43,532 bases of DNA from a virus. Positions within the stretch are counted from its first letter, which is position 1. Each line of letters opens with the position of its first letter. The translations under genes were made by a program, and so were the position numbers. The notes beneath the pieces were generated by a model. That model was not told the origin of the DNA. It worked only from the letters and a program-made list of their open reading frames with translations, and did no database searches. Location of the stretch: the IMG/VR virus record IMGVR_UViG_3300033127_000097, positions 1 to 43,532 of that record; one strand, given 5' to 3'. Positions 2,500 through 42,076 of this stretch are shown one piece after another.

Positions 2500-2889
2500 A
2501 TGGACTTCACTGTGATCGATACCGACGACCTGGAACCGCCGAAGCTCGAGACCGAGCCCAAAGAGGAGATCAGGCTTCCGCCACGCCAACGAGACGGATT
2601 GCTCGTTCGGCCAGATCCGGCGTCATCGAGCCTCGAGGAGTGCATCGAGACGATCCGAATCCTCGAAGACGAAATGAACCATTGGGAGAAACCTGATGCC
2701 GGCATCGTTCGCGAGCTGCGCGTGTGGCGCCAGCATCGCCTCGAGCTTGAGGATCGAGTGAGCCACGAGCAGGCTGGCCTGTTCTTCCCGAGCGGAATGA
2801 GTAGGCAGGAGATCATCGACGAGCTGGAGCGGCTCCTCGAAGTGGCGAAGTCACTCCCAGACCAGCTCTACGGGCTGATGTCTTCGTAG
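2500..2889 (+). CDS. Hypothetical acidic protein (129 aa)
   Basis: ATG with an AGGAG RBS. No family recognised. The 3' end overlaps the convergent HNH gene by 22 nt. Confidence 0.6.
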   Translation: MDFTVIDTDDLEPPKLETEPKEEIRLPPRQRDGLLVRPDPASSSLEECIETIRILEDEMNHWEKPDAGIVRELRVWRQHRLELEDRVSHEQAGLFFPSGMSRQEIIDELERLLEVAKSLPDQLYGLMSS

Positions 2890-3530
2890 ACATGTTCCCC
2901 GAGAAGTCGGGGGAGGATCTCGGACTCCCAAACAGAGCGCTTTCGACGCCTAGCGTTCTCGGCACCTGATACTTCTTCAAGGTGGGCAGGATTACAGCAG
3001 ACCCGGTTCCGGCACAGGTGGTCAATCGTGGTCTCGCGGTCGATTGGTGAGACCATCTTGCCGTATACCACTCGATGCACGAGCTTTCCTCGCAGGAGGC
3101 CGTAACCCGCGGTATTCAGCGCTCCCATGTAGAACCAGCAGCCGGTCTTACTGTCCCATTCCACGGATTGGAGAATCTGGAGCAGGATTGGTCTGCCGTC
3201 CTCGATTTCAGTTACTCCGGTACGCCTCACCCGCATGTAGTGCACCTTGCAGTAGCCCTTTGTGTGGGCTGGTTCCATGCAATCCGGTGCCTGACAGAAG
3301 GGCTTGATCTTGTAATCAGGTTCGTTAGGGCCCCTGAGCTTCGGGTTTGGGTTGCCCCGATATTGGGCTTGGTAGTGCCCCCTACACATGCCCTTCACGT
3401 GGGCAGTCCTACGGCATCCGTCAATTTTGCAAGCTATGTACTTCCTCATAAAAAACCACAAGTACCGCGGTGTGTAATTTTTTTCCAGTTGACGGTCGTG
3501 AAAAATCAACGATTTCGATACTGGTGTCAC
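2868..3530 (-). CDS. HNH homing endonuclease
   Basis: C-terminal TIDHLCRNRVCCNPAHLE is an HNH_3-type motif. Two duplicated Cys/His modules are present: CKIDGCRRTAHVKGMCRGHY and CQAPDCMEPAHTKGYCKVHY. The GTG start at 3530 has AAGGGG upstream. It is the only reverse-oriented gene within the plus-strand block. Confidence 0.85.
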   Translation of the reverse strand: MTPVSKSLIFHDRQLEKNYTPRYLWFFMRKYIACKIDGCRRTAHVKGMCRGHYQAQYRGNPNPKLRGPNEPDYKIKPFCQAPDCMEPAHTKGYCKVHYMRVRRTGVTEIEDGRPILLQILQSVEWDSKTGCWFYMGALNTAGYGLLRGKLVHRVVYGKMVSPIDRETTIDHLCRNRVCCNPAHLEEVSGAENARRRKRSVWESEILPRLLGEHVYEDISP

Positions 3531-3579: not shown

Positions 3580-4299
3580 ATGAGCACGCAAGGCGGTCTG
3601 GCCGTCAGCAAGACACTGGTCTCGGACAACGAGATCCTTCCTGGTGAGGAAGCGATCTGGGAACTCACCTTCGACAACTCGACCACCGAGCCCATCGAGG
3701 TCATGGTTTTCGACGCCCTCAACGCGTACACGATGGAGTCGTTCGCATGGTCAGCGGTGACCATCGGCCCCGGCAACGTCACTGGCAGCTCCGGCGCAGG
3801 CGTCGACCTCATCGACGAGACCATCACCATCGATCCGTTCACCCGGTACCGCTACACCATCATCGGCACCTCGCTGAGCCCGATGCGCGGCACCATGACC
3901 AACTGCGCGCGCTGGTGCACGGCAGACGACGAGTTCCCGCAGTACATCGCCTCCGAGGCGGTCTACGTCGGAATGCTCGAAGTCGACGCTTGCCTGGACC
4001 ACAACAGCCATGACCTCAACACGGCGCTCTACCAGTTGCTTCCAAAGCGTGGTCGCGCATCGAAGTTGTTTGACTTCATCGAAGCCGGCTATGACCTCGT
4101 CGACGTCCTCGAGCATGTCGCTAAGGACATCATGGGCAATGACTCCAACGCGAAGCCGTTCAACCCGGACTACGCCGGGTTCGCCGAGGCCGCTGCAGCT
4201 CAAGCCGAGCTCGAGGCTGCCGAAGCTGCTGCCGAAGCCGCAATGGAAGCTGCCATCGCTGCAGCTGAAGCTGCCGAAGCTGCGGACGCGGTGAACTAA
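3580..4299 (+). CDS. Hypothetical virion-associated protein with an Ig/DUF11-like N-terminus and an Ala/Glu-rich C-terminal helix
   Basis: A GGAGG RBS precedes the ATG. The N-terminal part reads VSKTLVSDNEILPGEEAIWELTFDNSTTEPIEVMVFDAL, which looks like a beta-sandwich pattern. The C-terminus is AEAAAEAAMEAAIAAAEAAEAA. It is coupled (TAATG) to the fibre gene. Confidence 0.6.
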   Translation: MSTQGGLAVSKTLVSDNEILPGEEAIWELTFDNSTTEPIEVMVFDALNAYTMESFAWSAVTIGPGNVTGSSGAGVDLIDETITIDPFTRYRYTIIGTSLSPMRGTMTNCARWCTADDEFPQYIASEAVYVGMLEVDACLDHNSHDLNTALYQLLPKRGRASKLFDFIEAGYDLVDVLEHVAKDIMGNDSNAKPFNPDYAGFAEAAAAQAELEAAEAAAEAAMEAAIAAAEAAEAADAVN

Positions 4300-7200
4300 T
4301 GAGTCTTGATCCCTCACTTCACCAAGGCGCGATCGACTTCATCAACTGCCTCAACAAGCAGGTTGGTGAGGGATCGACTCTCGCGCAATCCATCGCATAC
4401 CTCCTCGAGAACTCGACGATCGTTCGCGACTGCATCCCAGATGCAGGTGCTGGCGGCATCGATCTCGACGGAGGTCCGTACTCGGTCACGTTTAACACGC
4501 CCAACGAGGGCGACATCGTGCTCACCGACATCACGTCGGGCGAGTCGGCGACCATCGAGATCCTGCCGTTGCTACAGAGCCTCATCGACAACATCGACTT
4601 CACGATCCTTGAGCCAGGCCAGTGCGAAGCGATCTTCCAGTGCATTCTGGACAACGGCACCGAAGCGCAATGGAACCAGCTCATCGACATCTTGTGCGCC
4701 ATCGAGGCTCCACCGGCTCCCGCCGGCATCGTCGGAGCGAGTGGCACGCTCCCCAACGGCGTGGACTACACGCTGTCGGTTGTCGGCCCTGGCTCCTTGA
4801 TTCAGTCGCCGTCCGGCGCGAGTCAGTGGGACCAGAACTCGATTCTCGAGATCCAGTTCTCTGAACCTGTCGACTTCGAGACGGTTACCCCAACAGACCT
4901 TTCCGGGCTGAACCCTGCCGTTCAGCAGTGGCACACGAGCGGAGGCGTGTCTTCGGGCATCACCACCGACTCGGCAGTCGTGCCCACGTACACGCCAGGA
5001 GCCGTCGATATCACCAGCAAGCTCGCGTTGGGCGTTGGGTCGGCGACCGACAACGGCTCGACCGGCGCGACTGGCGTTGCCGCGACCGACGACTGGGGAA
5101 CGCTCCTGTTCTTCGGCGTGACGTCGGTACAGATCCAGGGTGTGAGCACCGAGCTGATGCAGTTCCAGGTGACCATCGACGGAGGCAAAGCTCTTGCAGC
5201 CTGCCTGTTCGACGGTCTCACCGGTCCCGATTGCGTGACGCTGTTCAACTGCATCATCGAGAACGGCAGTCCGGCCCAGTTCACCGAGTTCATCGAGCAG
5301 GTCAACTGGTCACAGATGAGCGAAGAGGTCTGCACGGGCATCTTCCAGTGCATCATCCAAGAAGGCTTCACCACGCAGTTCAACGAGTTCCTCAACAAGA
5401 TGGACTTCTCTGAGCTGTCGACTGAGAACTGCCGAGCGATCTTCCAGTGCATCATCGACCTTCGAGATGAAGCGCTCACCAACGCGTTCTTCCAGACGTT
5501 CAACTTCAACCAGTTGACCAACGCTCAGGTGGTCGACATCCGAGACATGATCGGCCCGTTGTTCACGGTCAACGCTGGAACAACCGCAGATGCCGCCGAC
5601 GACGCGCTTGGTACTGCCGAGGTGACCTTCGGCGACATCGTTCACTTCTGGTCACCCGATGGCACTTTGCTGTTCGGAGTCACCGAAGGTTCGGCGATTG
5701 TCGCGGCAACGCTCAACCCGACTGTGCTGACCGGCATCCAGCACACAACCATCACCAACATCGACCTTCAGCCGACTGTGAACCCCAACGAGTTCACGGT
5801 CGAGATCGAATGGACCGATGGCGACGGCAACGCCCAGACCACGACCGATCCAACGCCAGTTACTTTCGGCTTCACGCTGACCGACAACACGTTGGCCGAC
5901 TACCTGGCCGCAGATCCAGCAGTGGACATCAATGTTCGTCAGACCTCGGCATTGTCGCTTCGTGAGGTCCTCCGGGTCCACGAAGGTGGCGGCAGCAACG
6001 TCGCCCTCGGTGTTAACTCAGGCATCGGGAACACTGGTTCAAACACACTGTTCTCCGGAAGCGCCGCGGGCCAGGGCAACACGGCCAACTCGGTTACGGG
6101 CATCGGCGTCAACGCACTGCGCGACTCGGTCAATTCGCAAGGCGGCTTCGCTCATGGCGTCAACGCCGCCCGCGATGCCAACTTGCTGTCGAACTTCCTG
6201 GCCGTTGGCCAGCGAGCGCTTCGTGGAGCGGGTGGCAACGCAAAGACCGCCCTTGGCGACTCGGCTGGCCAGAACTCGTCTGGAGACCATCAGGTCTTCC
6301 TTGGCGATGCGGCTGGTCAGTTCAACAGTGGCTTCAACGTGTTTGCCGCTGGACGGCAGGCAGCCCGTGGGAACGCCGGCTCCTCGGTGCTCGCACTGGG
6401 AGAGCTGGCAGGCTCCAGCAACGCAGTAAGCGGTGCGGTCATTCTCGGTGCAGCCGAGTTCCCGACCTACGCTGATCATGCCACTGCGTATGCAGCGCTG
6501 CCTGCCCCTTCAGCCAACGGCGTCTACGTCTACCGCATCGTCGGTGACGGCCGGGTTTACTGGCGGAGCACCAGCGTTGCCGACACGGCCAGCGGAGCCG
6601 GAACCGACGATCAGAACGCAACCGAAGTTCCGATCACTGACCCCAGCGACATCTTCACTGCCACCACGGTTGAGGGTGCGCTGGCAGAGCTGTTCAATCT
6701 CGTCAACGGTCTCCCTCCGGAGACCGATTCAGACGTGCAGACGGCTACGGCTCCGTTCACGACAACCAACGGCGTTGCCGTACTCGCTGGCGGCACGTTC
6801 GTTCAGCTCGACAATGGAGAGACTTGGGCCAGCCCGATCCCAACGGCTTCCCTGATCTCCATCGTGGACGCCAACGGCTACCTCGATGCCACCAACGTCG
6901 AGGATGCGCTGGCCGAGCTTGCAGCTCCATGCCCGCCTGTCCCCGGACTCGGTGTGTTGTCTGCGCTGTTCCAAGATTCGGGTGTGCTCCCCAATGGCGT
7001 GACCTACACGGCCACGTTCAGCAACGGAGTGACCTACCGGGCTTCGGACGGCACGATCGACTGGCCAGGCGGCACCGTCACGTTCGACTTCTCGGCTCCG
7101 GTCGACATGATCATTGCCGGTCAGTCGACGGCTCCGTTCACTCGGATCTCGCTTGGCAGCGCTGAGGTCATCTCGACCAACGGCGACCCGATGACGTACT

Positions 7201-7787
7201 ACCCCGGTGGCGTCGACGCTGGACTCGTTGGCAGCGGCACTCAGCAGCTGACCGATGGAACCAGCGTTTCGGCTGCGTCCGATTGGGGAACGATCTACAT
7301 TCCGAACACCACTCAGGTGACCTACTTGGCGGCGAACAACGAAGAGGCACGTTTCTTTGCCTCCCCGTTGTCGGTCCCTGTGGCACCTGAAGCGTCGGCG
7401 TGCGATCAGATTCAGGCAATGGCTATCGGCCTTCAGGAGCGCATCGGTCTCAACGAGGCTGTCGTCGCGACGGTTCAGCCGAAGTACCGCCTGATCCCTT
7501 CCACGACGTTCGTGGTTGAGCGGGACGACCTCTCGGTTGTCAACTCAATGATCCAGATCAATGGCACGTCGGTCATGGACCCGATTCCAGTTGGCACCTT
7601 CTTGGGTGCTGACGCGGGCAAGTCCGTGACCTTGCTGAACAACACTGGTGGCCCATTGACGGTCACTGCCGATCCAGGCGTGACGTTGTTCTCCAACGGA
7701 CTTTTGACCTTCGCTCAAGGAGAGTCAATCGAGCTTTGGGCGAACAACAACGACGACACCGTCATCGTGCTCGGAGGCACGTCGTAA
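4299..7787 (+). CDS. Large tail fibre / receptor-binding protein (1162 aa)
   Basis: A degenerate GxxNTxxG-type repeat block (about 5985-6460) resembles those of phage fibres and YadA-like heads. VE(G/D)ALAEL motifs occur twice, and there are internal duplicated modules. The N-terminal ~50 aa are paralogous to the next gene. Confidence 0.7.
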   Translation: MSLDPSLHQGAIDFINCLNKQVGEGSTLAQSIAYLLENSTIVRDCIPDAGAGGIDLDGGPYSVTFNTPNEGDIVLTDITSGESATIEILPLLQSLIDNIDFTILEPGQCEAIFQCILDNGTEAQWNQLIDILCAIEAPPAPAGIVGASGTLPNGVDYTLSVVGPGSLIQSPSGASQWDQNSILEIQFSEPVDFETVTPTDLSGLNPAVQQWHTSGGVSSGITTDSAVVPTYTPGAVDITSKLALGVGSATDNGSTGATGVAATDDWGTLLFFGVTSVQIQGVSTELMQFQVTIDGGKALAACLFDGLTGPDCVTLFNCIIENGSPAQFTEFIEQVNWSQMSEEVCTGIFQCIIQEGFTTQFNEFLNKMDFSELSTENCRAIFQCIIDLRDEALTNAFFQTFNFNQLTNAQVVDIRDMIGPLFTVNAGTTADAADDALGTAEVTFGDIVHFWSPDGTLLFGVTEGSAIVAATLNPTVLTGIQHTTITNIDLQPTVNPNEFTVEIEWTDGDGNAQTTTDPTPVTFGFTLTDNTLADYLAADPAVDINVRQTSALSLREVLRVHEGGGSNVALGVNSGIGNTGSNTLFSGSAAGQGNTANSVTGIGVNALRDSVNSQGGFAHGVNAARDANLLSNFLAVGQRALRGAGGNAKTALGDSAGQNSSGDHQVFLGDAAGQFNSGFNVFAAGRQAARGNAGSSVLALGELAGSSNAVSGAVILGAAEFPTYADHATAYAALPAPSANGVYVYRIVGDGRVYWRSTSVADTASGAGTDDQNATEVPITDPSDIFTATTVEGALAELFNLVNGLPPETDSDVQTATAPFTTTNGVAVLAGGTFVQLDNGETWASPIPTASLISIVDANGYLDATNVEDALAELAAPCPPVPGLGVLSALFQDSGVLPNGVTYTATFSNGVTYRASDGTIDWPGGTVTFDFSAPVDMIIAGQSTAPFTRISLGSAEVISTNGDPMTYYPGGVDAGLVGSGTQQLTDGTSVSAASDWGTIYIPNTTQVTYLAANNEEARFFASPLSVPVAPEASACDQIQAMAIGLQERIGLNEAVVATVQPKYRLIPSTTFVVERDDLSVVNSMIQINGTSVMDPIPVGTFLGADAGKSVTLLNNTGGPLTVTADPGVTLFSNGLLTFAQGESIELWANNNDDTVIVLGGTS

Positions 7788-9521
7788 ATGCCACTTGACC
7801 TCGCGTCCGAGCAGGACGCGATCGACTTCATCAATTCCCTTAACTGCACGGTGCCTGCAGGTTCGACTTTCGCGCAAGCGGTGGCGTACCTCATGCAGAC
7901 ACCTGGCATCGCTCAAGAGTGCCTACTCGAGGCGTTATCGGAAGTTGGGTTCGTCGGCCCCCCCGGCCCGGCTGGACCGCAGGGCCCGTCCGGCGACGAC
8001 GGCTTAGACGGCGCTCAGGGTCCGGTTGGCCCCGAAGGTCCGATTGGACCTGAGGGGCCTACGGGTCCAACCGGAGCAGACGGCCCGATTGGACCCGTCG
8101 GTCCACAGGGTGATCCTGGCCCACAGGGGCCAGCTGGTCCAGCTGGAGTCGATGGAGCTGACGGAGCTGATGGTGCCGATGGCGCTCAAGGAATCCAGGG
8201 GCCGCAAGGCCCAATCGGTCCAGCTGGCCCGGCCGGCGCAGATGGAGTCGACGGTCAGGACGGTGCCGATGGTGCTGATGGCGTTGACGGCGCAGATGGC
8301 CCGATTGGGCCAGCAGGGCCTGCCGGTGCGGACGGGGCAGATGGAGTGGACGGCGCTGACGGCGCAGATGGCGCTGTTGGCCCGCAGGGGCCAATAGGAC
8401 CGGCTGGCCCGCAAGGCCCAGCAGGAGCAGATGGAGCAGATGGAGCAGATGGAGCGCAGGGGCCTCAAGGTATTCCTGGCAGCGATGGTGCTGACGGGGT
8501 TGATGGCGCCGATGGCGCGACGGGCCCGCAAGGGCCACAAGGAGATCCCGGCGTGGCTGGACCCGTCGGTCCCCAAGGCCCAGCTGGAGCGGACGGGGCT
8601 GACGGAGCTGACGGGGCCGATGGAGTGGACGGGGCTGTTGGACCTCAGGGACCAGTAGGGCCGCAGGGTCCGGTTGGTCCGGAGGGCCCAGCACCCACAC
8701 TGAATACCACCGACCTCGTGCTCGAACGGACCTTCGCGGGCCAGATCGACGTTGACGCTCAGAATGTGAACGTTGGCGGCAACGTCATCACGGTCTCCGG
8801 TGGCACCTTCGACACGGGCTGGAGTCAGATTCCAGGGGGCTCACTTCAGTACGCCGGCGAGCCAGATCGCATCGAGATCACAGCGATGGTCGTCAACGAT
8901 GCACAGGCCACCAATCAGCGCATGGCGCCTGGCGTGAACTTGGAGAAGTCCAACAATGGTGGGCCTTTCGCTTTGGTTCCGGCAGCGCGGTCTCGCACTG
9001 GCTACATCCGGCTTCTTAACGGGCACCAGACATCCAGCAACCATGTGTCGTGGACCGACATGAACCCTGGCCTCAACCCGACCTACCGACTGGTAGCTGT
9101 GCAGGCAGGGGTTGGCGGGAACGTGCAGAGCGTTGGGGGCCACTTCACTGGTATCGCAACAGAACGAGAAACCGTCACGGTCTACGTGCCGCCGTCAGGG
9201 GCAACGTCGAGCGGGGTGCCCGCAGGCAACGACGTGGTGAATAACTTCGCCTCCGATCAGTTCAACTTCCAGCTTCAAGTCCAGAACGTCACCGCGGGCA
9301 CGCTCGACGTTGAGACCATCTGGAATAATCGTCCGTACAGCACGATTCCGAGCCTGGTTCTTCCAACTGGATGGAGCCACTCGGTCGTGCCGGACGGAGC
9401 GCTGTTTGACCATGTGTTTACGGGGCCCGCCCCATCATTCCAAAACATCACCATTAGCGGAGGCCAGACGGTCCCCGCTGGCGATGCCGACAACTCACAG
9501 ATTGAGAATTACATCGTATGA
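7788..9521 (+). CDS. Collagen-like fibre protein (577 aa)
   Basis: About 80 uninterrupted G-X-Y triplets are followed by a ~280-aa globular C-terminal domain. The N-terminal 50 aa ([19 protein letters not shown]...) are paralogous to the 4299 gene. Confidence 0.85.
7956..8688 (+). repeat. Collagen G-X-Y triplet repeat region (9-nt periodic [10 protein letters not shown]-type units)
   Basis: Gly occupies every third codon throughout, with many near-identical ggagcagat / ggagctgac units. Confidence 0.9.
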
Positions 9522-10357
9522 CCTGGCATAACCCGCCTCAGACATTCCAGAAGGGCCACCTCAATGAGGTGGAGTACCCGCTATCCAGTCTGCCCCTCGT
9601 TTCCGATGGGGCAGAAATGGTCATGTTGGGGGAGAACCTATACGAGGCGCCGGCGCCCACAATGCCCGGCGACGACGGCTTTCAGGCTGAGCTCGATGAG
9701 GTCATGCGCGTCCGCAACGACGTGCTCAACGGCGTCTGGCCTACGTGGTTTTTTCAGGACCACGGCATGTCGGCAACGCCGCCGTCGACCTTCAAGCAGG
9801 TCGGCGTGCACGTCGGTGACCCCGAGGCTGCAGCGGGTCTCGTCCACATGGACGATCCGATGGACCTCGGCGTGCTCATGCGCAACTACCTGCTCGGACT
9901 CATCCAGCGCCCGGAGGGCCAGCACGGCATGTTCCTCGAGAACATCCCTGGCTTCAACGCCAAGCTGGCCACGGCAGTTAATGATGCGCTGCTGGCGGCA
10001 GCTGAAACCAAGCAGTTCTTCGGGCGACCACGTCCCGAGGAGATGCTCTGCTTCAATATGACGCACTACCCCGAGGGTTGCCCCAAGCATCCCGCGTATC
10101 CTGCCGGTCACGGCGCTGCGGCTGGAGCGACCTTTGCAGTACTGGAGAGCCACTTCGCTGCTCATCTCAGCAGCAACCTGCTGGAGTATGTGCGGGACGC
10201 CTGCCTTCAATTCTCAATTTACAGAGTATTGGCAGGCGTCCACTTCGCTGACGATTGTCAAATTGGATTCTTGCTTGGGTACGCCGCGGCCAACGGCCTG
10301 GCATCCGTAACTGAAGCTGCCGAGAAGGCCGGATGGGGCGAGAGGTATGTGGGTTAA
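9518..10357 (+). CDS. Soluble PAP2-superfamily enzyme (acid phosphatase / vanadium haloperoxidase-like)
   Basis: All three PAP2 motifs are present: K165-x6-R172-P173 (KQFFGRPRP), P195-A-G-H198 (HPAYPAGH) and R236-x5-H242-x3-D246 ([11 protein letters not shown]). No obvious hydrophobic TM segments. ATGA-coupled to the collagen-like gene. Confidence 0.7.
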
Positions 10358-10580
10358 TGTCATCTCGCTCACAACGCCACTGGTGCTCGCCCTGTTGGGC
10401 GCCGGATGGACGTTTGTGAGGTGGAACGGAACGATGGATAAGCGGGTAAGCCATCTTGAACAGCGAGCAGAACACCTGGAGGAGCAAGTCGATGAACTGA
10501 AGGGCTCCAACGAGGAGAACTTCAGACGACTGGAAACGAAGCTGGATCGAATCATCGACCACCTTCTGAAAGGGACGTAA
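10347..10580 (+). CDS. Small membrane-anchored coiled-coil protein (77 aa)
   Basis: The N-terminal segment VISLTTPLVLALLGAGWTFV is hydrophobic. It is followed by a heptad-like acidic helix (HLEQRAEHLEEQVDELK...). It overlaps both flanking genes. Confidence 0.6.
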   Translation: MWVNVISLTTPLVLALLGAGWTFVRWNGTMDKRVSHLEQRAEHLEEQVDELKGSNEENFRRLETKLDRIIDHLLKGT

Positions 10581-11146
10581 TGGCAATCAGACCTGATGAA
10601 CCAACGTGCGATGAGCTGGCCGAAAAGGAACTCTGCGAGCACGAGGAGTGCTACGGCACATTCTGCCGGCAGCCGAACATGACCAACTTGATCGAAGCGT
10701 TCTGGCCAGATAGTCACGAACGTGCACTCGAGGCGGCGGATCTGATTTGGCTTCTGAGTTTGCCCGACAAGTTCCGCACCAACGGTGCCGAGATGGTTCA
10801 CGGTTGCGGCACTGATTCAAAGGGCTGCTGCGAGCTCGTAAGGAGTGGTCGTGAGGACCCGAACCAATGCCCGAACCGGAGCTACGGAGTGGACCTCGTG
10901 GCTGTGCTGCGCGCAGCCGTCCACGCAATGTCCATGCAGCGCATTCCAACCACGGGCCTCGCTCACCCCGATTGGGACAACCCCGAGTGGGGAATCGCTG
11001 ATGGCACTGTCCTGGTCTGGGATTCGGAGGCATTGCCCGACTGCGAACTCGTGGACGACCGCGAACCCTCTGTTCGCGGGGCATTCGTCTTGACTGACAT
11101 CAACGCGCTGATCACCCAGCGCCTCACTGAAGAAGGATTGATCTAA
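10580..11146 (+). CDS. Hypothetical Cys-rich protein (188 aa)
   Basis: TAATG coupling at both ends. It has 10 Cys, including CDELAEKELCEHEECYGTFC and GCGTDSKGCC. No family recognised. Confidence 0.6.
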   Translation: MAIRPDEPTCDELAEKELCEHEECYGTFCRQPNMTNLIEAFWPDSHERALEAADLIWLLSLPDKFRTNGAEMVHGCGTDSKGCCELVRSGREDPNQCPNRSYGVDLVAVLRAAVHAMSMQRIPTTGLAHPDWDNPEWGIADGTVLVWDSEALPDCELVDDREPSVRGAFVLTDINALITQRLTEEGLI

Positions 11147-12477
11147 TGGCACTGCCGCAACGTTGCGTCACTGACGTGCAAGACAAGGATGGAGTGTCCC
11201 TGCATCGAGGGGTGGACTCTCGTGAAGTGCGGGGCGTTCAGCGCTCACTCACGTACCCGGACGACACTTGTCCCGGTGAAGGCGATCTCGTCATTGCGGG
11301 CGTGGAGGACCAGTTCGGCGTCGAGTACGCCACCAATGGGCCGAACACTGTCATCCCTCGACCCGACCAGTTCATTGTCGACCTTGTTGCCGACGACGCG
11401 GTTCGGATCCGTCGATTCGACCCGAACGGAGTGCTCCTCGGCACGTGGATCGAAACCGATGCGCAGGTGTCGGGAAACGTCAACGACGGCTGGACCATTG
11501 TTGACGATGGCGGGGACGTCATCATCATCCCCGGACCAGAGGCTCAACCTGACATCGAGGACCAGTTCGGCAACGCGTATGGGCGTGACGGTGACGGGAA
11601 CTGGATCATCCCTCGTCCGAACACGACGCAGATCTCGCAGGGCCCCGACGGCGAGCTTGTGGTTACCATTGTCGATCCGAACGGACTCGTGCTCGTCACG
11701 TACTCCGAGACTGATGCCGAGATCACCGAGAACGTCGATGGGTCGCTGACAATCGTCGACGATTCGGGGGACGTGTTCAACGTGCCTGCACCGGCTGCTG
11801 GGTCGCTGATCGAGAACAGCGCAGGGACGCTGTACCCGACGGCGCCCAACGGAAATCAAGTCATCGATGTGCCTCCAGCGATTACGCCGGGCACGCTGGT
11901 GTTTTTTCAGGACGCAGACCAGATCCCGGTCGACAACGTGGCCAACGACGGGCTGGAGTTCTCCGAGTGCTTCGATCTGTCCGGAGGCATCATCGACCTG
12001 GCGGACCCCATTTCGGCAGTAGACCAAGTGCTCGGCTTTCAAACGCTTGGGGCGTTTTCTGGCGCTGCGGTGGACGCGATCGTGGGCACCGAGCTGATCA
12101 ACATTGGCGGGAGCCTGACGAACAACACCGATAAGACGATGGTCTACGTGGTGACGTGGCGTTCCGGCAACGTGTCGATTCGGATGGGTAGCCCGCTGAC
12201 CGATCATTGGCTGGTGCAGTGCCGGATGGAGATGAACGGGAGCGACGTCCTCGGAGGTTTGGCGCCGAACAACCTGATTCAACCTCAGACGTCGGGGCCG
12301 TTCTTCCGCATCAACTTCTCGAGCCAGACCATCACTCGCGGGGTGATCGTCCCACCAGGCGGCTCGTTTAACGCAACGACGACGGTGGACTTTTTGCCTG
12401 CCGTGTACACCCCTGACGCGCAGAACATCTTGAACGTGCAGCGTTACCAGATTTCAGCGTTCGGCTTCCCGATCTAG
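11146..12477 (+). CDS. Fibre/spike-like protein with a tandem ~84-aa repeat (443 aa)
   Basis: The N-terminus MALPQRCVTDVQDKDG is paralogous to the 12826 gene. An internal repeat (EDQFG...IPRP...DPNG...TDA...TIVDDxGDV) occurs twice. Confidence 0.65.
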   Translation: MALPQRCVTDVQDKDGVSLHRGVDSREVRGVQRSLTYPDDTCPGEGDLVIAGVEDQFGVEYATNGPNTVIPRPDQFIVDLVADDAVRIRRFDPNGVLLGTWIETDAQVSGNVNDGWTIVDDGGDVIIIPGPEAQPDIEDQFGNAYGRDGDGNWIIPRPNTTQISQGPDGELVVTIVDPNGLVLVTYSETDAEITENVDGSLTIVDDSGDVFNVPAPAAGSLIENSAGTLYPTAPNGNQVIDVPPAITPGTLVFFQDADQIPVDNVANDGLEFSECFDLSGGIIDLADPISAVDQVLGFQTLGAFSGAAVDAIVGTELINIGGSLTNNTDKTMVYVVTWRSGNVSIRMGSPLTDHWLVQCRMEMNGSDVLGGLAPNNLIQPQTSGPFFRINFSSQTITRGVIVPPGGSFNATTTVDFLPAVYTPDAQNILNVQRYQISAFGFPI

Positions 12478-12485
12478 GAGGATCG

Positions 12486-12839
12486 ATGACTCACTACGCA
12501 ATCATTTGCACCTATCCCGAATACACGGACAATCGTGCCAAAGCCCTGGAGGGGCGCGATCAGGCTGTGGCTGAACTGACGTCGCAGCTCCGAGAGTCGG
12601 GGTCCGCGTTGCAGGCCATGATGGCCGACGACCTTGAGGCGCAGGTACTGCCTGAGCCTTTGACCGCTCAAGAGTTCAATGACCTTTACGGCGATGGGGT
12701 CATCGTGCGGTACGGGGAGATCGGCGGCATGTCTCGAGCGGAGATTGCTCAGCATCATTCGGTTCACACGGCTAAGGTTCGGCTTCTCGTTGAGAGCGAC
12801 CTTATGGAGCGTTTGGAGGCCCAGAATGGCACTGCCTAG
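12486..12839 (+). CDS. Hypothetical protein (117 aa) between the two paralogous fibre-like genes
   Basis: An AGGAGG RBS lies 5 nt upstream of the ATG. There is a possible HTH-like stretch (MSRAEIAQHHSVHTAKVRLLV). Function unknown. Confidence 0.6.
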   Translation: MTHYAIICTYPEYTDNRAKALEGRDQAVAELTSQLRESGSALQAMMADDLEAQVLPEPLTAQEFNDLYGDGVIVRYGEIGGMSRAEIAQHHSVHTAKVRLLVESDLMERLEAQNGTA

Positions 12840-13524
12840 CCGATGCATCACCGACGTGCAGGACACGGACGGCAACAGCTATCCACGGGACGCCGACGAC
12901 AACGGTGTCGTGATTCTTGACATCCCAGAGCAAGGCGTTACCGACGTGCTGCTCGAAGGGAGCAGCGTGGTCACCGGTGGCGTGGCGGAGCTTCCGGCGT
13001 ACCCGGTACTTCCGGCCGAGCACACCACACTGTCCACCCGTGGCGGCTTGATTGCTGTCAGCGGACAGACCGGGACCTTCGTGCCTCTTGACTTCTTGGT
13101 TTCCGCCATTGGGGCGCCAGTCGAGCAGGTCGCAAACAACACGGTCTCGATTCCCAATCCGTCGGCAGATCGAGTCATGCGATGCATCCTCCTGATCGGC
13201 GGATCGTGCGAAGTGTTCTTCCAGACCGAGAATCCGAACCGGATCTTCACTGAGTGGGAGTACAACCTGTCAGGACTTGTTGGCCCCGACCAGCAGATCT
13301 TTGGTCAGCAAGGCTTTGGTCTCGGCGAGGACGGTTTCGCAGACGGACTGCAGGCCAGTATCGACATCCCCGGGATGACGCCAACGTCAGCGGCGTTCGA
13401 CATCCCGGCAGGTGGAACGCTGGAGTTGGACATTTCGATCAATCAGGCGGTCCGGGTCTGGGATGGGGTCAGCGAGATGTCTGCGGTTCGCACGAATTTC
13501 CACGTGTTCGGGTCAACGGTTTAG
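12826..13524 (+). CDS. Second fibre/spike-like protein (232 aa)
   Basis: This uses the internal ATG of ORF 12679..13524. The N-terminus MALPSRCITDVQDTDG matches the 11146 gene at both protein and nucleotide level, so the start is set at 12826. Confidence 0.6.
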   Translation: MALPSRCITDVQDTDGNSYPRDADDNGVVILDIPEQGVTDVLLEGSSVVTGGVAELPAYPVLPAEHTTLSTRGGLIAVSGQTGTFVPLDFLVSAIGAPVEQVANNTVSIPNPSADRVMRCILLIGGSCEVFFQTENPNRIFTEWEYNLSGLVGPDQQIFGQQGFGLGEDGFADGLQASIDIPGMTPTSAAFDIPAGGTLELDISINQAVRVWDGVSEMSAVRTNFHVFGSTV

Positions 13525-13725: not shown

Positions 13726-13944
13726 ATGAACTGGAATGACATCCTTGAGCGGGCCGGTTGGACTTTTGTCCAGGCGTTCGTCGGCACCTTTGGTGCGATC
13801 AGCTTGATCTCAGACTTGAGCGAGATCGCAGGGGCAGCTGACGCAGCTGCGGCTGCGGGTCTTTCTGCAGTTTTGAGCTTCGTGAAGACGGTCGCTCAGG
13901 AGCGGCTTGCTATCCCTGAGACGAGGGTGCCTCCAGGTGCCTGA
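13726..13944 (+). CDS. Holin (r1t-type-like, 72 aa)
   Basis: MNWNDILERAGWTFVQAFVGTFGAISL... has two hydrophobic segments. Its N-terminal pattern resembles r1t-family holins, and it sits immediately upstream of the amidase. Confidence 0.55.
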   Translation: MNWNDILERAGWTFVQAFVGTFGAISLISDLSEIAGAADAAAAAGLSAVLSFVKTVAQERLAIPETRVPPGA

Positions 13945-13951
13945 CGAGCTG

Positions 13952-14665
13952 ATGCCCGGCGTGCGGCACATGTTGCTGCCCGAGGCGTATCAGGAAACTC
14001 GTATTGATGACGATGACGTCGTACAGGTCATCGTTCACTCCTTCGCTGACGGTCCCGGCGCAACGAGAATGCGGGACTATCTGGCTCGTTCGGACGTGAA
14101 GGTCGAGTACACGTTCGGCGTGTACTCCGATGGCCGTATCGATCAGTGGGTGCCGGTGGGTTATGCCGCCGACGCGACGATTCACGCCAAGAACCATTCG
14201 GTTTCGATCGTCTTTGAGTCGGACTCCACGAGCTCAAGTAAGCCGTTCACCGAGGCGCAATGGGCTGCGCTGGTGAGGATCACGGTCTGGCTCCACCAGG
14301 AATGGGGCATCCCGCTGAAGCTGATCCCTCATGGCCAGCCGACCTCGCCGGGGTTGGGCTGGCATCGAATGTACATCGAGGGCAACAAGTCGGGGCTGGG
14401 CTATGCATCGAGCTACGACTTTCAGGGGGATCCGTCGTACTCGTGGTCGCTGTCCCGCGGCAAGACCTGCCCCGGCGATGCCCGCGTAAAGCAGCTCGAG
14501 GCGCATTGGGTGAACGATGTGCGCGCGGCGCTTCCGTTGCCTGAGTATTTGGCGGCAATGAAGGCCGATTGGCAGCTGGTGAAGAGGATCACGTGGATGC
14601 GTCCCGGCAAGCGTTTCAGGCGCATCCGGGCTATAGCAATCGAGAATCTCGATCGTTTCCCCTAG
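13952..14665 (+). CDS. Endolysin, N-acetylmuramoyl-L-alanine amidase (Amidase_2/PGRP-like)
   Basis: The motifs are VIVHSFA, NHSVSIVFES and GKTCPGDARV, the last being a typical Zn-amidase C-terminal motif. I chose the ATG at 13952. The ORF opens at TTG 13907, overlapping the holin. Confidence 0.75.
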   Translation: MPGVRHMLLPEAYQETRIDDDDVVQVIVHSFADGPGATRMRDYLARSDVKVEYTFGVYSDGRIDQWVPVGYAADATIHAKNHSVSIVFESDSTSSSKPFTEAQWAALVRITVWLHQEWGIPLKLIPHGQPTSPGLGWHRMYIEGNKSGLGYASSYDFQGDPSYSWSLSRGKTCPGDARVKQLEAHWVNDVRAALPLPEYLAAMKADWQLVKRITWMRPGKRFRRIRAIAIENLDRFP

Positions 14666-31349: not shown

Positions 31350-31701
31350 CCTTGCGTGGCTTAGGGGTGAGTGCGTCCTGCCAAATTTTCTCAGGTGGAC
31401 GAACGAGTGTAATAGCGCCTGTCCATTCGGGGGCCCACTGATTGACGGTGAACTCGTCTCTGTCGGGATAGTGGAATAGCACGAATGGCTCATCCCGGTC
31501 CCGCATCCAGGTGAGGAACATACGCAGCCATGGTGGCCACGGACTGCCGGCGGCAATAACATCGCAGTCCAGCAACCACTGGTAGGCGAGCAGGACACGC
31601 TTGTACTCCGGCGGCAGCCCCCGACCCGGCCCGACGTCGATGCCACCTTTGGCCATGCGAAACACCTGCGCCGCGTTCGGCATGCTGCCTGTGTAGCTCA
31701 A
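31339..31701 (-). CDS. Hypothetical Trp-rich protein (120 aa), last gene of the leftward operon
   Basis: The TTG start at 31701 overlaps the upstream TGA, with an alternative ATG at 31683. The 3' end overlaps the convergent giant gene by 11 nt. Confidence 0.5.
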   Translation of the reverse strand: MSYTGSMPNAAQVFRMAKGGIDVGPGRGLPPEYKRVLLAYQWLLDCDVIAAGSPWPPWLRMFLTWMRDRDEPFVLFHYPDRDEFTVNQWAPEWTGAITLVRPPEKIWQDALTPKPRKVSS

Positions 31702-33140
31702 CGTCCTGCCAGTCTCGTGAGCACCTTGGCCAAGATGCCAACGATTGCGGTGGGCGTGAAGTCTCTGAGTAGATCGAAGATGATGTCAATCTCGATGGGC
31801 TCGAACTCCTCCTCCGGCTCGTCTGGCTCCTCCGGCTCGTCTGGCTCCAGCATCTTGTCGAGGGATCGGGAGAAGTCAAGGCTGCCGTTGCAATGCATCA
31901 CCCCAAGATGCGAGTCCTCCAGGTTCGAAACCGGGGTGCCGCAGTTCGGGTAGGTGGCGTCGGATACCAGCTGACCATTGGTGCGGCTGACCGCCGCGAC
32001 CACGTCCCCCTTCTCGTGCACGGTCAGCACCTCGAAGAACACGTTCCGATCCCTGTTCATCACGTCATCGCCATCGTTAACGAAGCCCACTTCGATGTCG
32101 GTGCTGTACTCGAGGCCGAACCACGTGAATTTGGAGCCTGCCCGGCGAGCGATCATGCGACGTGCACATGGCTCTCCGTCAACGGCAAGCTCAAGTTCCT
32201 CTGAACCGGTGGCGCCACTAGCTGAGACACTGACGTCCATTGGCCCGTGTCCGCACACGACACCGTTCGGGACGTCGACCGGATACGCGGACTCGCGCAT
32301 TGGGTTCGCATCGTAGACCGCCATGTCGGCGTAGGTCAGTGTCGACTTCGTAGTGGGCTGCCACTCGGCAGTGTTGCCTCCCCAGTAGCTCTGGAAGAGC
32401 AGCGTGTCGATCTGCTGTTCAGCGTTTGGGCCGAGCCAAGCGAAGTCCATGCCGTCGCCATTGAAGAGCCTGCCATCCAAACGCAACACCACGTGGTCGT
32501 CGACCCACGCCTCGAAAAACTGGTTCTCACCCACGCCATAGCCAAGCGTCAAGGTGAACCATTCCCCGAGCGGGACATGCCAGAGACCCTCATCCCCAAT
32601 GCGTCCCATTTCGATGCCGTTGTTACGTCCGTCGTATTGGTACGGGTAAGGGTTGTCGATGCCCTCCTTGCGGAAATTGATCTGCCGTCCGTAACGGAGG
32701 TCGTCACGCACAGCGAGCTCGTAGTCGTAGGCGTACACGCCAATGGTGAAGGCGTCAGCCGGCTCCCAACTCCTACCTGCAGTGTTCACGCCTCGCCACA
32801 TGAGACGTCCGGAGAATCCGAACTCGTCGTGGTTGCCGCCGGTGTGCGGGCCGTTGACCTGACCGTTGCGCCCCGTCGACCCAAGACCCGGCATCTTGCC
32901 GCCCACCGAGTGGGCCTTGAGGTTCTTGCCGAAGTCAAAGTCCTTGGGGAAGAAGCACGAGTACTGCAGCCATAGCTCTTGGTGTCCTTCGGGAAGTGGC
33001 ACTTCGGCGCCTGAGGCGTTGTAGTCGTTGGGGACCGTGGTGTAGGTCATCGTCCCCTCGTCAGAGAAATCCCACTTAGCGAGATCGTTCCAGCGATGAT
33101 CGGGTGCGGGCCCGTTGAATTCGCGAATCGTGTTAGCCAT
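31698..33140 (-). CDS. Polysaccharide lyase (PL14 / Polysacc_lyase-like) with a C-terminal carbohydrate-binding-like module
   Basis: FDFGKN...VGGKMPGLGS...FGFSGRLMWRG...IGVYAYDY resembles the GGKLPGL...FSxRLMWR...Y.Y signature. The C-terminal part contains FVNDGDDVMNRDRNVFFEV, which looks CBM-like. This is followed by a PDEPEEPDEPEEE linker and an amphipathic tail. Strong AAGGAGAG RBS. Confidence 0.6.
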   Translation of the reverse strand: MANTIREFNGPAPDHRWNDLAKWDFSDEGTMTYTTVPNDYNASGAEVPLPEGHQELWLQYSCFFPKDFDFGKNLKAHSVGGKMPGLGSTGRNGQVNGPHTGGNHDEFGFSGRLMWRGVNTAGRSWEPADAFTIGVYAYDYELAVRDDLRYGRQINFRKEGIDNPYPYQYDGRNNGIEMGRIGDEGLWHVPLGEWFTLTLGYGVGENQFFEAWVDDHVVLRLDGRLFNGDGMDFAWLGPNAEQQIDTLLFQSYWGGNTAEWQPTTKSTLTYADMAVYDANPMRESAYPVDVPNGVVCGHGPMDVSVSASGATGSEELELAVDGEPCARRMIARRAGSKFTWFGLEYSTDIEVGFVNDGDDVMNRDRNVFFEVLTVHEKGDVVAAVSRTNGQLVSDATYPNCGTPVSNLEDSHLGVMHCNGSLDFSRSLDKMLEPDEPEEPDEPEEEFEPIEIDIIFDLLRDFTPTAIVGILAKVLTRLAGR

Positions 33141-40678: not shown

Positions 40679-40963
40679 CTACCCTCCGTGCAAACGCTCG
40701 AAAAGCATTCCTTTCAGCAAAGACAAGCCTTGCACTAGCGTCCCCACGCCCCGAGGGGTGAGAACATACTTGACGCCAGACTCGGCCAGCATTTGGACCT
40801 GGTCGTCGGTCATGCCGTAACTGATGATGCCTCCCGCTTCCACCAGCACCTCGTCGGGTATCAGGGTCAATTGGACCTCGAACGTCTCCGGAGAGGTGTC
40901 AACAATCTCCACGGCCACAGCCGAGATCGCGATCGGCTCCTCCTCGATCAGCTCGTCGCTCAT
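40679..40963 (-). CDS. Hypothetical acidic protein (94 aa)
   Basis: ATGA-coupled to the ku stop. Confidence 0.5.
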   Translation of the reverse strand: MSDELIEEEPIAISAVAVEIVDTSPETFEVQLTLIPDEVLVEAGGIISYGMTDDQVQMLAESGVKYVLTPRGVGTLVQGLSLLKGMLFERLHGG

Positions 40964-41730
40964 GCCGCGCCCTTGGCTTGAGCGATCTGCGCCTCGAGCT
41001 GTGCCATCAGATCCCCCGGCGACGACTCGGCCTCAACCTCCTCGACCACCGGCTCCTTGCCCTCGAGCTTCCGGGCGAGCATTGAGAGCAGCGCATCTCG
41101 ATGAGTGTTCTCGAAGCTGGCATGCTCCCACTCGATCGTCATGCCCATCACCATGTCGTCAGCCATCTCGAGCATCTGGTCGGTTGGCTCCGGCCACGAC
41201 TGCACAGCCGGCTCCCGAACCTCGTCGAACCAGTACAGCTCATGCACGTAGACCCTGGTCGTCGTTGCCCGCAAGACGACGAGGCGCTCGTGCCCGGCCT
41301 TGACGTAGCTGCCCACGCCAACAAGTCCACGGTCTTCGAGCACACGCGCCAGAAGGGTCAGCCCAAGCTCGCCACCCTCACCAGGACCAACTTGATGGGC
41401 ACTCGTGTACAGCGAAGGGTCGATCTCGTGTTTGGGCACGAAGCCAACGAGTTCGATATGCGACGTCTTCAGCGGCTGCACAAGAGCGATCTCATCGGCG
41501 GTCACGTCGACCGTTGAACCGTCGCCGAACTCGTAACGCTTCATCACGTCGGCCTTGCGATCGAGCTCGTCGCCGGTGACCGATGAGACGTACGGCATCC
41601 GGATCCTCTCGCCCGTTGCCTTCTCGATTGTCGAGAACGAAACCTTGTCTTCTCGTGCGTCCACATACATTTTGATGGGGACGTTAAGCATGCCCAGAGA
41701 GATACTCCCGGTCCATGTTGCGCGTGGCAT
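40960..41730 (-). CDS. ku: Ku-like DNA end-binding protein (257 aa)
   Basis: The N-terminus MPRATWTGSISLGMLNVPIKMY aligns by eye with bacterial Ku (MRAIWTGSIAFGLVNVPVKVY). Length and the following blocks (ELVGFVP, DPSLY) are also typical. Start set at ATG 41730, which has an RBS. Confidence 0.9.
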   Translation of the reverse strand: MPRATWTGSISLGMLNVPIKMYVDAREDKVSFSTIEKATGERIRMPYVSSVTGDELDRKADVMKRYEFGDGSTVDVTADEIALVQPLKTSHIELVGFVPKHEIDPSLYTSAHQVGPGEGGELGLTLLARVLEDRGLVGVGSYVKAGHERLVVLRATTTRVYVHELYWFDEVREPAVQSWPEPTDQMLEMADDMVMGMTIEWEHASFENTHRDALLSMLARKLEGKEPVVEEVEAESSPGDLMAQLEAQIAQAKGAA

Positions 41731-41750
41731 TTCATTACCTCTTTCTGTTT

Positions 41751-41806
41751 GGGGTGCAAGTCGCACCGCGAAGCCCACCGACTGCAAGCCGATGGGCAAC
41801 GCGCTA
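41751..41806 (-). promoter_or_regulatory. Conserved intercistronic RNA module, copy A (long hairpin + GGTGC-N5-GCACC hairpin)
   Basis: About 90% identical to copy B. It begins at the TAG stop of the upstream gene and ends about 20 nt before the ku RBS. Confidence 0.6.
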
Positions 41807-42076
41807 CGACTCGATTGGCAACGATTCACCTTGATCCACGTACTTGATGTAAAGATCGTGGTGTCTATCCCCTTGGTCGTCGTCGCCGGTGGCGTGCCCA
41901 TCCAGCCATAGCCTGCGAACATCATCGTCGATGACAGCCATTAGGCGTAGCATCGGTTCGATTTCTGAGCACGCCATCTTTGGGCCAATATCAGCAGCCA
42001 ACCATGGTTCATTCATTGCCTTCACAAACTCGTACGCGGCAGCAACGATCAGTGCCTCATTGTTAGCGCCGCTCAC
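41804..42076 (-). CDS. Hypothetical protein (90 aa)
   Basis: The GTG at 42076 is GTGA-coupled to the clamp-like gene stop. This is the C-terminal part of ORF 41804..42355. Confidence 0.45.
   Translation of the reverse strand: MSGANNEALIVAAAYEFVKAMNEPWLAADIGPKMACSEIEPMLRLMAVIDDDVRRLWLDGHATGDDDQGDRHHDLYIKYVDQGESLPIES

Follow-up and report, generated by a model that had tools for sequence, protein, structure and literature searches.

A plus-strand gene at positions 9518..10357 of the IMG/VR virus record IMGVR_UViG_3300033127_000097 encodes a compact, soluble enzyme of 279 amino acids (aa) that belongs to the PAP2 superfamily, resembles the vanadium haloperoxidases (VHPOs) and is embedded among the tail-fibre genes of a tailed phage. 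The window, by which we mean the whole stretch of 43,532 nucleotides (nt) that was analysed, is the nearly complete genome of this uncultivated phage. The assignment is based on a Pfam PAP2 match, an AlphaFold2 model, Foldseek comparisons and a family of relatives, and this phage-borne mini-PAP2 family, with its distinctive gene context, is previously undescribed. From the fold, the catalytic residues, the translationally coupled context and the recurrent neighbours we infer a possible chemistry, substrate, location and purpose. The explanation that we tentatively prefer, while giving it less than an even chance, is a histidine phosphatase made late in infection, which would be anchored at the host's inner membrane by a 77-aa protein and would act on lipid-linked envelope phosphate.

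The Gene and Its Catalytic Motifs

The reading frame is open throughout, and its product matches the Pfam PAP2 model (PF01569) over aa 158-264; the score of 41.6 bits (E=1.2e-10; gathering cut-off 27.2) is far above chance. This hidden Markov model (HMM) search had been proposed in an initial annotation of the stretch, which also described a complete PAP2 catalytic signature; the significant match and the presence of all three motifs bear that description out. The first motif, KQFFGRPRP (K-x6-R-P, with K165, R172 and P173), occupies aa 165-173 (nt 10010..10036, plus strand, as for the other motifs). The second, HPAYPAGH (H191 and H198), lies at aa 191-198 (nt 10088..10111) and is the equivalent of PSGH with Ser replaced by Ala, its core being P195-A196-G197-H198. 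The third, R-x5-H-x3-D (R236, H242 and D246), follows at aa 236-246 (nt 10223..10255), and the span of nt 10010-10255 that the initial annotation gave for the motifs is exact. Outside these three classical motifs stands a family-specific VHMDD (V109-D113; aa 109-113, nt 9842-9856) with near-invariant M111 and D112; hhalign pairs VHMD(D) with YVHWD of the bacterial vanadium-bromoperoxidase-like (VBPO-like) proteins described below, in which the conserved positions are different ones (Y and H). The HMM score above threshold, the three motifs and an all-helical fold place the protein in the PAP2 superfamily.

The peak 19-residue Kyte-Doolittle mean of the protein is only 1.14, so that no transmembrane (TM) helix is expected, and a hydrophobic signal-like stretch was looked for at the N-terminus and found to be absent. 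The earlier claim that membrane helices are missing therefore holds, and the protein does not have the multiple motif-bearing TM helices of the integral-membrane lipid phosphate phosphatases. The same 279-aa protein occurs in identical form on two independently assembled contigs (44.3 and 44.4 kb), so the gene is not an assembly artefact; its GC content, GC content at third codon positions and codon usage are those of the neighbouring structural genes, and it is native to this phage genome.

Fold and Closest Relatives

The AlphaFold2 model, built on a 34-sequence alignment, has a pLDDT of 92.8 and a pTM of 0.92 and consists of an all-helical core with a confidently placed, non-helical N-terminal arm (residues 1-54). 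Foldseek comparison with the PDB returned at probability 1.0 only PAP2-fold enzymes (more than 40 chains), led by vanadium iodo- and bromoperoxidases, with class A acid phosphatases next (TM-score 0.62-0.64, normalised to the phosphatase). PDB sequence matches, Foldseek and profile-profile comparison are all led by VHPOs and class A acid phosphatases, LpxE and PgpB being marginal, and this agreement supports the earlier placement of the protein nearer the soluble acid-phosphatase/VHPO branch than the membrane lipid phosphatases. The top sequence and fold matches in the PDB are the solved vanadium haloperoxidases of Acaryochloris marina (5lpc/8q21), Corallina (1up8/7qvw) and Zobellia (4cit). 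The motif-2 segment differs little from AFPEGSPMHPSYGAGHATVAGA in the solved bromoperoxidase of A. marina, in which the Ser of PSGH is likewise replaced by Ala (GAGH).

In a search of 5.8 billion proteins the first matches from outside the family were bacterial VBPO-like proteins of ~500 aa, and no acid phosphatase was found at E<=1e-8. When the family was aligned by hhalign with four VBPO-like proteins, the probability was 99.4 and E=3e-21 over 167 columns, every catalytic residue being aligned and K165 and R172 pairing with K339 and R347. On the strength of these alignments and of homology to the solved enzymes, K165, R172, H198, R236 and H242 would be expected to converge on one pocket. The VBPO-like proteins (P0208-P0210, ~480-540 aa, and the product of an alphaproteobacterial open reading frame (ORF) in locus L014) have a catalytic half homologous to the phage family and share with it K-x6/7-RP, the block YPEGCPxHPxYPxGH, which includes the His seven positions ahead of the catalytic one, and R-x5-H-x3-D. 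Of the 513 columns of the VBPO-like profile, the hhalign match takes in only 250-484, the C-terminal half, and the family therefore looks like the VBPO-like catalytic half at the size of an acid phosphatase, and looks like a descendant of that half. Unlike the VBPO-like proteins, the phage protein has only half their size, is devoid of the N-terminal helical bundle and of two inter-motif insertions, and is encoded in phage late modules; only the phage family has its own conserved 95-residue N-terminal region (FQKG..YPL, VHMD). With respect to export, the VBPO-like P0209 has a twin-arginine-type leader, whereas the phage protein has no export signal.

Three narrower groups of the superfamily were compared with the protein. 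The class A acid phosphatases (Salmonella PhoN 2a96, Escherichia blattae 1d2t/1iw8, PhoC 9qci and Pseudomonas 7f17) have the same catalytic motifs, are matched by the family profile at E ~1e-6 and share a soluble single all-helical PAP2 domain of similar size, the 279-aa protein falling within the range of these single-domain soluble enzymes (about 25-30 kDa). They are, however, secreted to the periplasm with a signal peptide, which the phage protein does not have, and their motif 2 reads GSYPSGH instead of HPxYPAGH. The cut-off of the NCBIfam PhoC model is missed, with weak matches in four of the 34 aligned family members (best E=2.5e-5) and none for the window protein. Of the features of VHPOs, the vanadate-binding Lys, Arg, (Ser)-Gly-His, Arg and His are present, but the two-bundle architecture of 450-650 aa is not, and Pfam VCPO_2nd (PF22778) gave only a faint precomputed match that is absent at E<=1 in a direct scan. 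An aromatic residue three positions before the Lys and a His or Phe seven positions before the catalytic His are what we take to be second-shell positions of the VHPO halide/peroxide pocket. The membrane PAP2 lipid phosphatases (PgpB, LpxE/LpxF, BcrC, YodM) have the same catalytic motifs as the phage protein, which shows weak sequence matches to LpxE (6ebu), YodM (5jki) and a SepP-type undecaprenyl-diphosphatase. These are six-helix enzymes with a periplasm-side active site. The phage protein, by contrast, is soluble, and some of the phages encode beside it a separate single-pass membrane protein that is predicted to hold it on the cytoplasmic side; a lipid-linked phosphate or pyrophosphate substrate would be common to both if our preferred explanation is right. 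The window protein thus appears to fall outside all three groups, because it has no signal peptide or family-model match, a one-bundle architecture and no TM helices, respectively. In a fold search of BFVD the only viral PAP2-fold structures were those of giant viruses (Hokovirus, Yasminevirus and Klosneuvirus, E 4e-6 to 7e-3), which are 480-640 aa proteins of eukaryotic viruses with 14-19% identity and lie outside the phage family.

Family Size and Conservation

A word-indexed search found 35 relatives of 223-306 aa (all but one at least 249 aa) at 30-55% identity, all of them metagenomic, and an exhaustive profile search of 1.84 billion representative proteins returned 3584 matches at E<=1e-3, 613 at E<=1e-10 and 165 at E<=1e-30. 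Among the 150 best matches listed, nearly all are full-length (240-310 aa). The window protein is not a one-off and belongs to a full-length family of at least 150 representative proteins of about 250-300 aa, whose members lie almost exclusively on uncultivated phage contigs; pattern scans of IMG/VR and of metagenome and genome collections found few full-length members. Pfam PAP2 is matched by 31 of the 34 aligned members, and no signal peptide or TM segment of their own was found in family members.

Conservation was counted over 171 sequences, the representatives being mostly less than 50% identical to each other. The catalytic K/R/H/R/H pentad is complete in 167 of them, with K165 in 170, R172 and H198 in all 171, R236 in 168 and H242 in 170, and an additional His, H191, is invariant (171/171). 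The pentad and H191 are so conserved that they indicate an active enzyme under purifying selection and not a decayed domain. Similarly constant are P189 (168/171), D112 (170/171), V109 (165/171) and M111 (159/171). Position 196, the Ser of PSGH, is Ala in 144 sequences and Ser in only five, and the position three before the Lys is Phe in 152 and Ala in the window protein.

Known phage collections hold almost nothing of this family. PHROG has no family for the window protein and gave a single marginal match (E=0.007) for one of the 34 aligned members, megablast and tblastn of the gene against 50,697 GenBank phage records gave no match, and PADLOC and NCBIfam made no family assignment; homology to known virion proteins was thus found neither in PHROG nor among the GenBank phages. 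No report of a phage PAP2 enzyme or a phage haloperoxidase was found in the literature searched. The statement in the initial annotation that such an enzyme has no established role in a virion or adsorption module agrees with these results.

Genomic Context

Directly upstream of the mini-PAP2 gene lies the gene of a 577-aa collagen-like tail fibre (7788..9521, plus strand), which matches Pfam Collagen at E=1.9e-38 and PHROG tail-fibre families down to E=3e-63 and contains 83 uninterrupted G-X-Y triplets. In public gene calls, 7788-9521 is split up among three short ORFs (123, 75 and 267 aa) that use frames other than the collagen one; Pfam and the PHROGs back the 577-aa frame. The stop codon of the collagen-like gene and the start codon of the mini-PAP2 gene overlap as ATGA in GTATGACC, and the next gene (10347..10580, plus strand), which encodes the 77-aa partner candidate, begins 11 nt before the mini-PAP2 stop codon. 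Both junctions are as the initial annotation had described them, which had also proposed co-expression with receptor-binding proteins. This too is supported: genes abut or overlap throughout 4299-12477, no sigma-70-like promoter or strong terminator was found in 4299-11146, and the gene is predicted to be expressed late, through a translationally coupled chain, with the fibres and a small membrane-anchored coiled-coil protein. The plus-strand late block runs from a 1162-aa fibre through the 577-aa collagen-like fibre, the mini-PAP2 protein, the 77-aa TM/coiled-coil protein and a 188-aa Cys-containing protein to proteins of 443 and 232 aa, an Amidase_2 endolysin, the large terminase, an SU10-type portal, a scaffold, the major capsid protein and a 1538-aa protein. 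Given this order, the mini-PAP2 gene is flanked by two pairs of receptor-binding-type proteins.

Gene context was compared across 19 phage loci and a single cellular one. In 9-10 of the 19 phage loci, large fibre, adhesin or collagen-like genes immediately precede the mini-PAP2 gene (binomial p ~0.003 at an assumed base rate of 0.2), a position that recurs across the family but is not universal. The exceptions include a gene inside a lambda-like head module, right after the capsid gene (L030), one that stands alone on the opposite strand in an early region (L028), one between a methylase and tail genes (L029) and one that lies two genes after a muramidase (L027). Of the contexts seen, only that of L011 is clearly cellular: its full-length member (9920-10861) has PNPase, prfB, leucyl aminopeptidase and argG as neighbours on a contig of 230 kb that was binned as Gracilibacteria, and would gain a hydrophobic, signal-like N-terminus if translation began at a GTG codon further upstream. 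In three otherwise unrelated phages, the fibres upstream of the gene (L001 8411-9649, L025 7375-8529 and L026 9209-9859) have in common a C-terminal domain of 120-190 aa at 38-55% identity, which may be a receptor-binding tip passed on together with the enzyme. Constant company of collagen-like fibres, which would suit a cross-linking role, is not a rule of the family, as a collagen-like ORF lies within 2.1 kb upstream in only four of 17 loci.

The mini-PAP2 domain is also associated with metzincin proteases. Three members (P0062, P0151 and P0095) are, according to their protein sequences, apparently joined to M10, M10/astacin and M43 proteases. In L002 the gene of an M10 metzincin (10743-11558) overlaps the end of the mini-PAP2 gene. 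P0095 has a lipoprotein-type leader and a TM helix between its two domains. The domain order is not the same in all of these cases, and this variation argues that they arose independently. The window itself contains no HExxH metzincin ORF.

Cys-rich proteins often follow the mini-PAP2 gene or that of its TM partner (window 10580-11146; L001 11123-11719; L026 11138-11488; L029 8797-9192; L031 9050-9673; L004 10888-11757). The one in L004 has an Endonuclease_7 domain and that in L031 repeated CRCDECR motifs, and homology is detectable only between the copies of the window and L001.

Possible Functions of the Enzyme

Most likely, the enzyme is a phosphatase. In the mechanism that we prefer, the attacking residue would be His242, which would become a phospho-histidine in its reaction with a phosphate monoester or a terminal pyrophosphate; His198 would protonate the leaving group, and the phosphate would be held by Lys165, Arg172 and Arg236. 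A small bitopic protein encoded next to the enzyme would tether this catalytic subunit, itself soluble, to the inner membrane on the cytoplasmic face, where it would dephosphorylate a lipid-linked envelope component or precursor. Candidates for this substrate are polyprenyl (pyro)phosphate, lipid A/core intermediates and phosphatidate-type lipids, and in their favour speaks that lipid phosphates are the substrates of most characterised PAP2 enzymes. The recurrence of the gene beside receptor-binding genes suggests that the target may be tied to the envelope structure recognised by the fibres, the supply of a receptor glycan being cut, for example, late in infection. Precedents for a non-virion function in this position are T5 Llp, HK97 gp15 and phi80 Cor, small membrane proteins encoded in tail clusters that are superinfection-exclusion factors. 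Like the mini-PAP2 gene, their genes lie beside those for receptor binding; they are non-structural and act at the host envelope, as our enzyme would. Unlike it, none is an enzyme or paired with one, and no homology was detected.

The 77-aa partner candidate has an N-terminal TM helix (Kyte-Doolittle 1.74-1.88 at residues 1-19, with no K/R before the helix and three after it) followed by a charged coiled-coil tail. A filter for similar proteins (at most 150 aa, a TM segment and at least 23% charged residues), the thresholds of which were set after the proteins had been seen, picks seven of 174 ORFs within 7 kb of the mini-PAP2 gene in the first 12 loci. All seven are its immediate neighbours, five downstream and two upstream, with a start/stop overlap in six and a 3-nt gap in L007. 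In the window, L001 and L025 the partner has a single N-terminal TM helix with no K/R before it and 2-4 after it, while that of L026 is tail-anchored and those of L006 and L007 have two helices. In the fusion protein P0095, the TM helix ahead of the PAP2 domain is flanked by acidic residues on its N-terminal side and by basic ones on its C-terminal side. In all of these arrangements the coiled coil or PAP2 domain would face the cytoplasm, although this is suggestive only, because the positive-inside rule is weak for single-pass phage proteins; it would mispredict lambda Rz. With a membrane-anchored partner recurring in this way, action at the membrane of the infected cell is indicated no less than a role in the virion. 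A spanin reading of the TM/coiled-coil neighbour was rejected, as there is no embedded or following ORF for an o-spanin lipoprotein and the predicted topology is opposite to that of an i-spanin.

Several observations weigh against a membrane-tethered phosphatase. Besides the weak topology rule and the late choice of the filter thresholds, a strict TM/coiled-coil ORF is immediately adjacent in none of seven loci examined later, where such an ORF lies within 1.5 kb in two and a different TM protein is adjacent in one, so that we treat the partner as a feature of a subset of the family that includes the window. The motif-3 Asp, the charge-relay residue, is present in only 123 of the 171 sequences, and the nearest relatives of the family are haloperoxidase-like and not phosphatases. 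All known lipid PAP2 enzymes face the periplasm, and we know of no precedent for one that faces the cytoplasm. The coupling to a fibre gene, the shared fibre C-terminal domain and the fusions to signal-less metzincins would, finally, fit an exo-enzyme carried by the virion or released at lysis about as well.

Such an exo-enzyme, fibre-associated or set free with the progeny, would dephosphorylate the lipopolysaccharide (LPS) lipid A/core or a phosphorylated polysaccharide of the next host, so that a receptor is exposed or destroyed or the outer membrane is loosened at the site of tail penetration. We regard it as rather unlikely, though as the closest competitor. It draws on the frequency of fibre, adhesin or collagen-like genes directly upstream and on the ATGA coupling in the window, and the common fibre domain of L001, L025 and L026 looks like a travelling host-range cassette. 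Fusion or adjacency to metzincins without a signal peptide would suit a multi-enzyme module that attacks the envelope, and one member lies within a head-gene cluster, where virion proteins are encoded. On the other hand, the absence of homologues in PHROG structural families and cultured phages leaves it without proteomic support, no fibre-anchoring domain is recognisable, an integral membrane protein such as the recurrent partner would be an unusual part of a tailed-phage virion, and two contexts are clearly non-structural (L028, early and on the opposite strand, and L011, cellular). Less probable still is an accessory function in lysis, in which the TM/coiled-coil protein would be of the holin type and the enzyme, which like a canonical endolysin has no signal peptide, would pass through holin lesions to the periplasm and hit a phosphate-containing envelope component. 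The 77-aa protein has weak holin matches in PHROG (E=7e-4), and a weak relative of it in Roseobacter phage CRP-831 is encoded between a tail fibre and an M15 peptidase, a position that keeps the lysis-protein reading of the partner alive. The gene orders PAP2, TM/coiled-coil, Amidase_2 endolysin in L025 and muramidase, TM/coiled-coil, 196-aa gene, PAP2 in L027 are in line with this. Yet only about five of 17 loci have an endolysin-type gene within 4.5 kb, which is near chance, and the window and L001 have another small membrane-protein gene right before the endolysin, this pair being separated from the mini-PAP2 gene by fibre genes. There is also no o-spanin-like lipoprotein gene beside the TM/coiled-coil genes, and we know of no phosphate ester in Gram-negative envelopes whose hydrolysis causes lysis.

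The remaining alternatives concern the chemistry and the link to the envelope. A minimal vanadate-dependent haloperoxidase would hold vanadate on His242 and, once outside the cell (on the virion or after lysis), would form hypohalous acid by oxidising bromide or iodide with H2O2, possibly for damage to cell surfaces, inactivation of signalling molecules or cross-linking of proteins. Since both activities use the same residues, phosphatase and haloperoxidase are inseparable by sequence, and apo-VHPOs are themselves phosphatases, which counts against a haloperoxidase; we consider this alternative improbable. The relatives speak for it, as the nearest ones outside the family among 5.8 billion proteins are bacterial VHPO-like proteins and not acid phosphatases, the hhalign match to them is strong, and vanadium bromo- and iodoperoxidases are the best PDB sequence and top Foldseek matches. 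So do the Ala that replaces the Ser of PSGH, as in A. marina, and the invariant H191 seven residues before the catalytic His, a position that is presumably that of the second-shell His of algal bromoperoxidases. The entire N-terminal helical bundle of known VHPOs is, however, missing (279 aa against 450-650), the window protein has Ala where an aromatic residue would be expected three positions before the Lys, no export signal is present although vanadate/H2O2 chemistry is extracellular, and the literature searched holds no phage haloperoxidase. An equally improbable alternative is a general metabolic or 'moron' phosphatase, acting in phosphate scavenging or in the hydrolysis of nucleotides or sugar phosphates with no link to fibres or membrane, its position marking an insertion site for accessory genes. 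The class A acid phosphatases are of broad specificity, the contexts are varied (L030 in a head module, L028 on the early opposite strand, L029 near a methylase, L011 cellular), and the frequent Cys-rich or endonuclease-like flanking genes hint at mobile cassettes. Against these stand the tight translational coupling within the late chain, the fully adapted codon usage, and the significant enrichment beside fibre genes and beside a specific class of membrane proteins; an unregulated broad phosphatase in the cytoplasm would, moreover, deplete nucleotides that the phage needs.

Lysogenic conversion as a role for the gene is unsupported: no integrase was found among the window ORFs scanned, and the gene has no promoter of its own.

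Other Genes of the Window

The large plus-strand gene upstream of the collagen-like fibre (4299..7787) encodes a fibre-like protein of 1162 aa, which is homologous to large proteins encoded upstream of the mini-PAP2 gene in other loci (cluster 1) and whose first 45 residues are common to the collagen-like fibre (51% identity over aa 1-45, that is, 4299-4433 and 7788-7922). A second pair of fibre-type genes on the same strand is built alike. The 443-aa fibre-like protein (11146..12477) has the N-terminus MALPQRCVTDVQDKDG, which matches that of the 232-aa paralogue (12826..13524) in a local alignment, the common N-terminal MALP.RC.TDVQD.DG falling within 11146-11230 and 12826-12910. The start of the 232-aa protein agrees with the source gene call, and L001 has a homologue (cluster 5). 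The paired N-terminal modules suggest two attachment sites, each of which may be able to bear alternative receptor-binding proteins. Between the 77-aa gene and this second pair lies the gene of the 188-aa Cys-containing protein (10580..11146, plus strand), a protein that also follows the TM/coiled-coil gene in the syntenic phage L001 (cluster 4) and for which Pfam, PHROG, PADLOC and GenBank phages gave no match.

The Amidase_2 endolysin (13907..14665, plus strand; Pfam Amidase_2 E=1.9e-10, with a PHROG endolysin match) is encoded 3.5 kb downstream of the mini-PAP2 gene, just before the large terminase. The best GenBank match of the terminase reaches only 37.6% and is to an uncultured phage, and comparison with the GenBank phages revealed no cultured relative. 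Just past the end of the late block, a minus-strand gene (31698-33140) encodes a 480-aa protein with a polysaccharide lyase family 14 (PL14) domain (E=2e-13) and a weaker CBM60 carbohydrate-binding match (E=4e-5), which at 24.5 bits stays below the cut-off of 28.2. Encoded away from the fibre genes, this protein is likely a depolymerase; a 969-aa protein of L002 also has a faint PL14 match. The minus-strand block holds the replication genes, namely primase, DnaB-like helicase, exonuclease and Ku, the last being a homologue of the Ku70/Ku80 beta-barrel (40960-41925, minus strand; Pfam Ku E=2.4e-27). An HNH endonuclease gene (2868-3530, minus strand; E=7.5e-10) lies immediately upstream of the start of the plus-strand late block.

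Implications

The enzymes usually encoded in receptor-binding modules are glycan depolymerases, esterases or peptidoglycan hydrolases. What the mini-PAP2 family would add to them depends on which explanation is right. A phosphatase tethered to the membrane and turned towards the cytoplasm would be the first of this orientation among PAP2 enzymes and would represent a new form of viral interference with lipid-linked envelope precursors, whereas action from the virion would make the family a new class of receptor-modifying enzymes that might be turned against LPS or capsule. There is also a small chance that tailed phages carry a single-bundle vanadate haloperoxidase of ~30 kDa, half the size of any known one, which would be made together with the fibres and generate hypohalous acid at the bacterial surface; it could serve to damage the envelope, to inactivate signals or, by analogy with peroxidasin and collagen IV, to cross-link the phage's own collagen-like fibres, and as the smallest haloperoxidase known it would be of biocatalytic interest. 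With its size of at least 150 representative clusters, its invariant residues and a confident model, the family is amenable to direct study of recombinant protein. A conserved phosphate- or vanadate-site enzyme in a receptor-binding module would point to a chemistry at the host envelope that is undescribed for phages.

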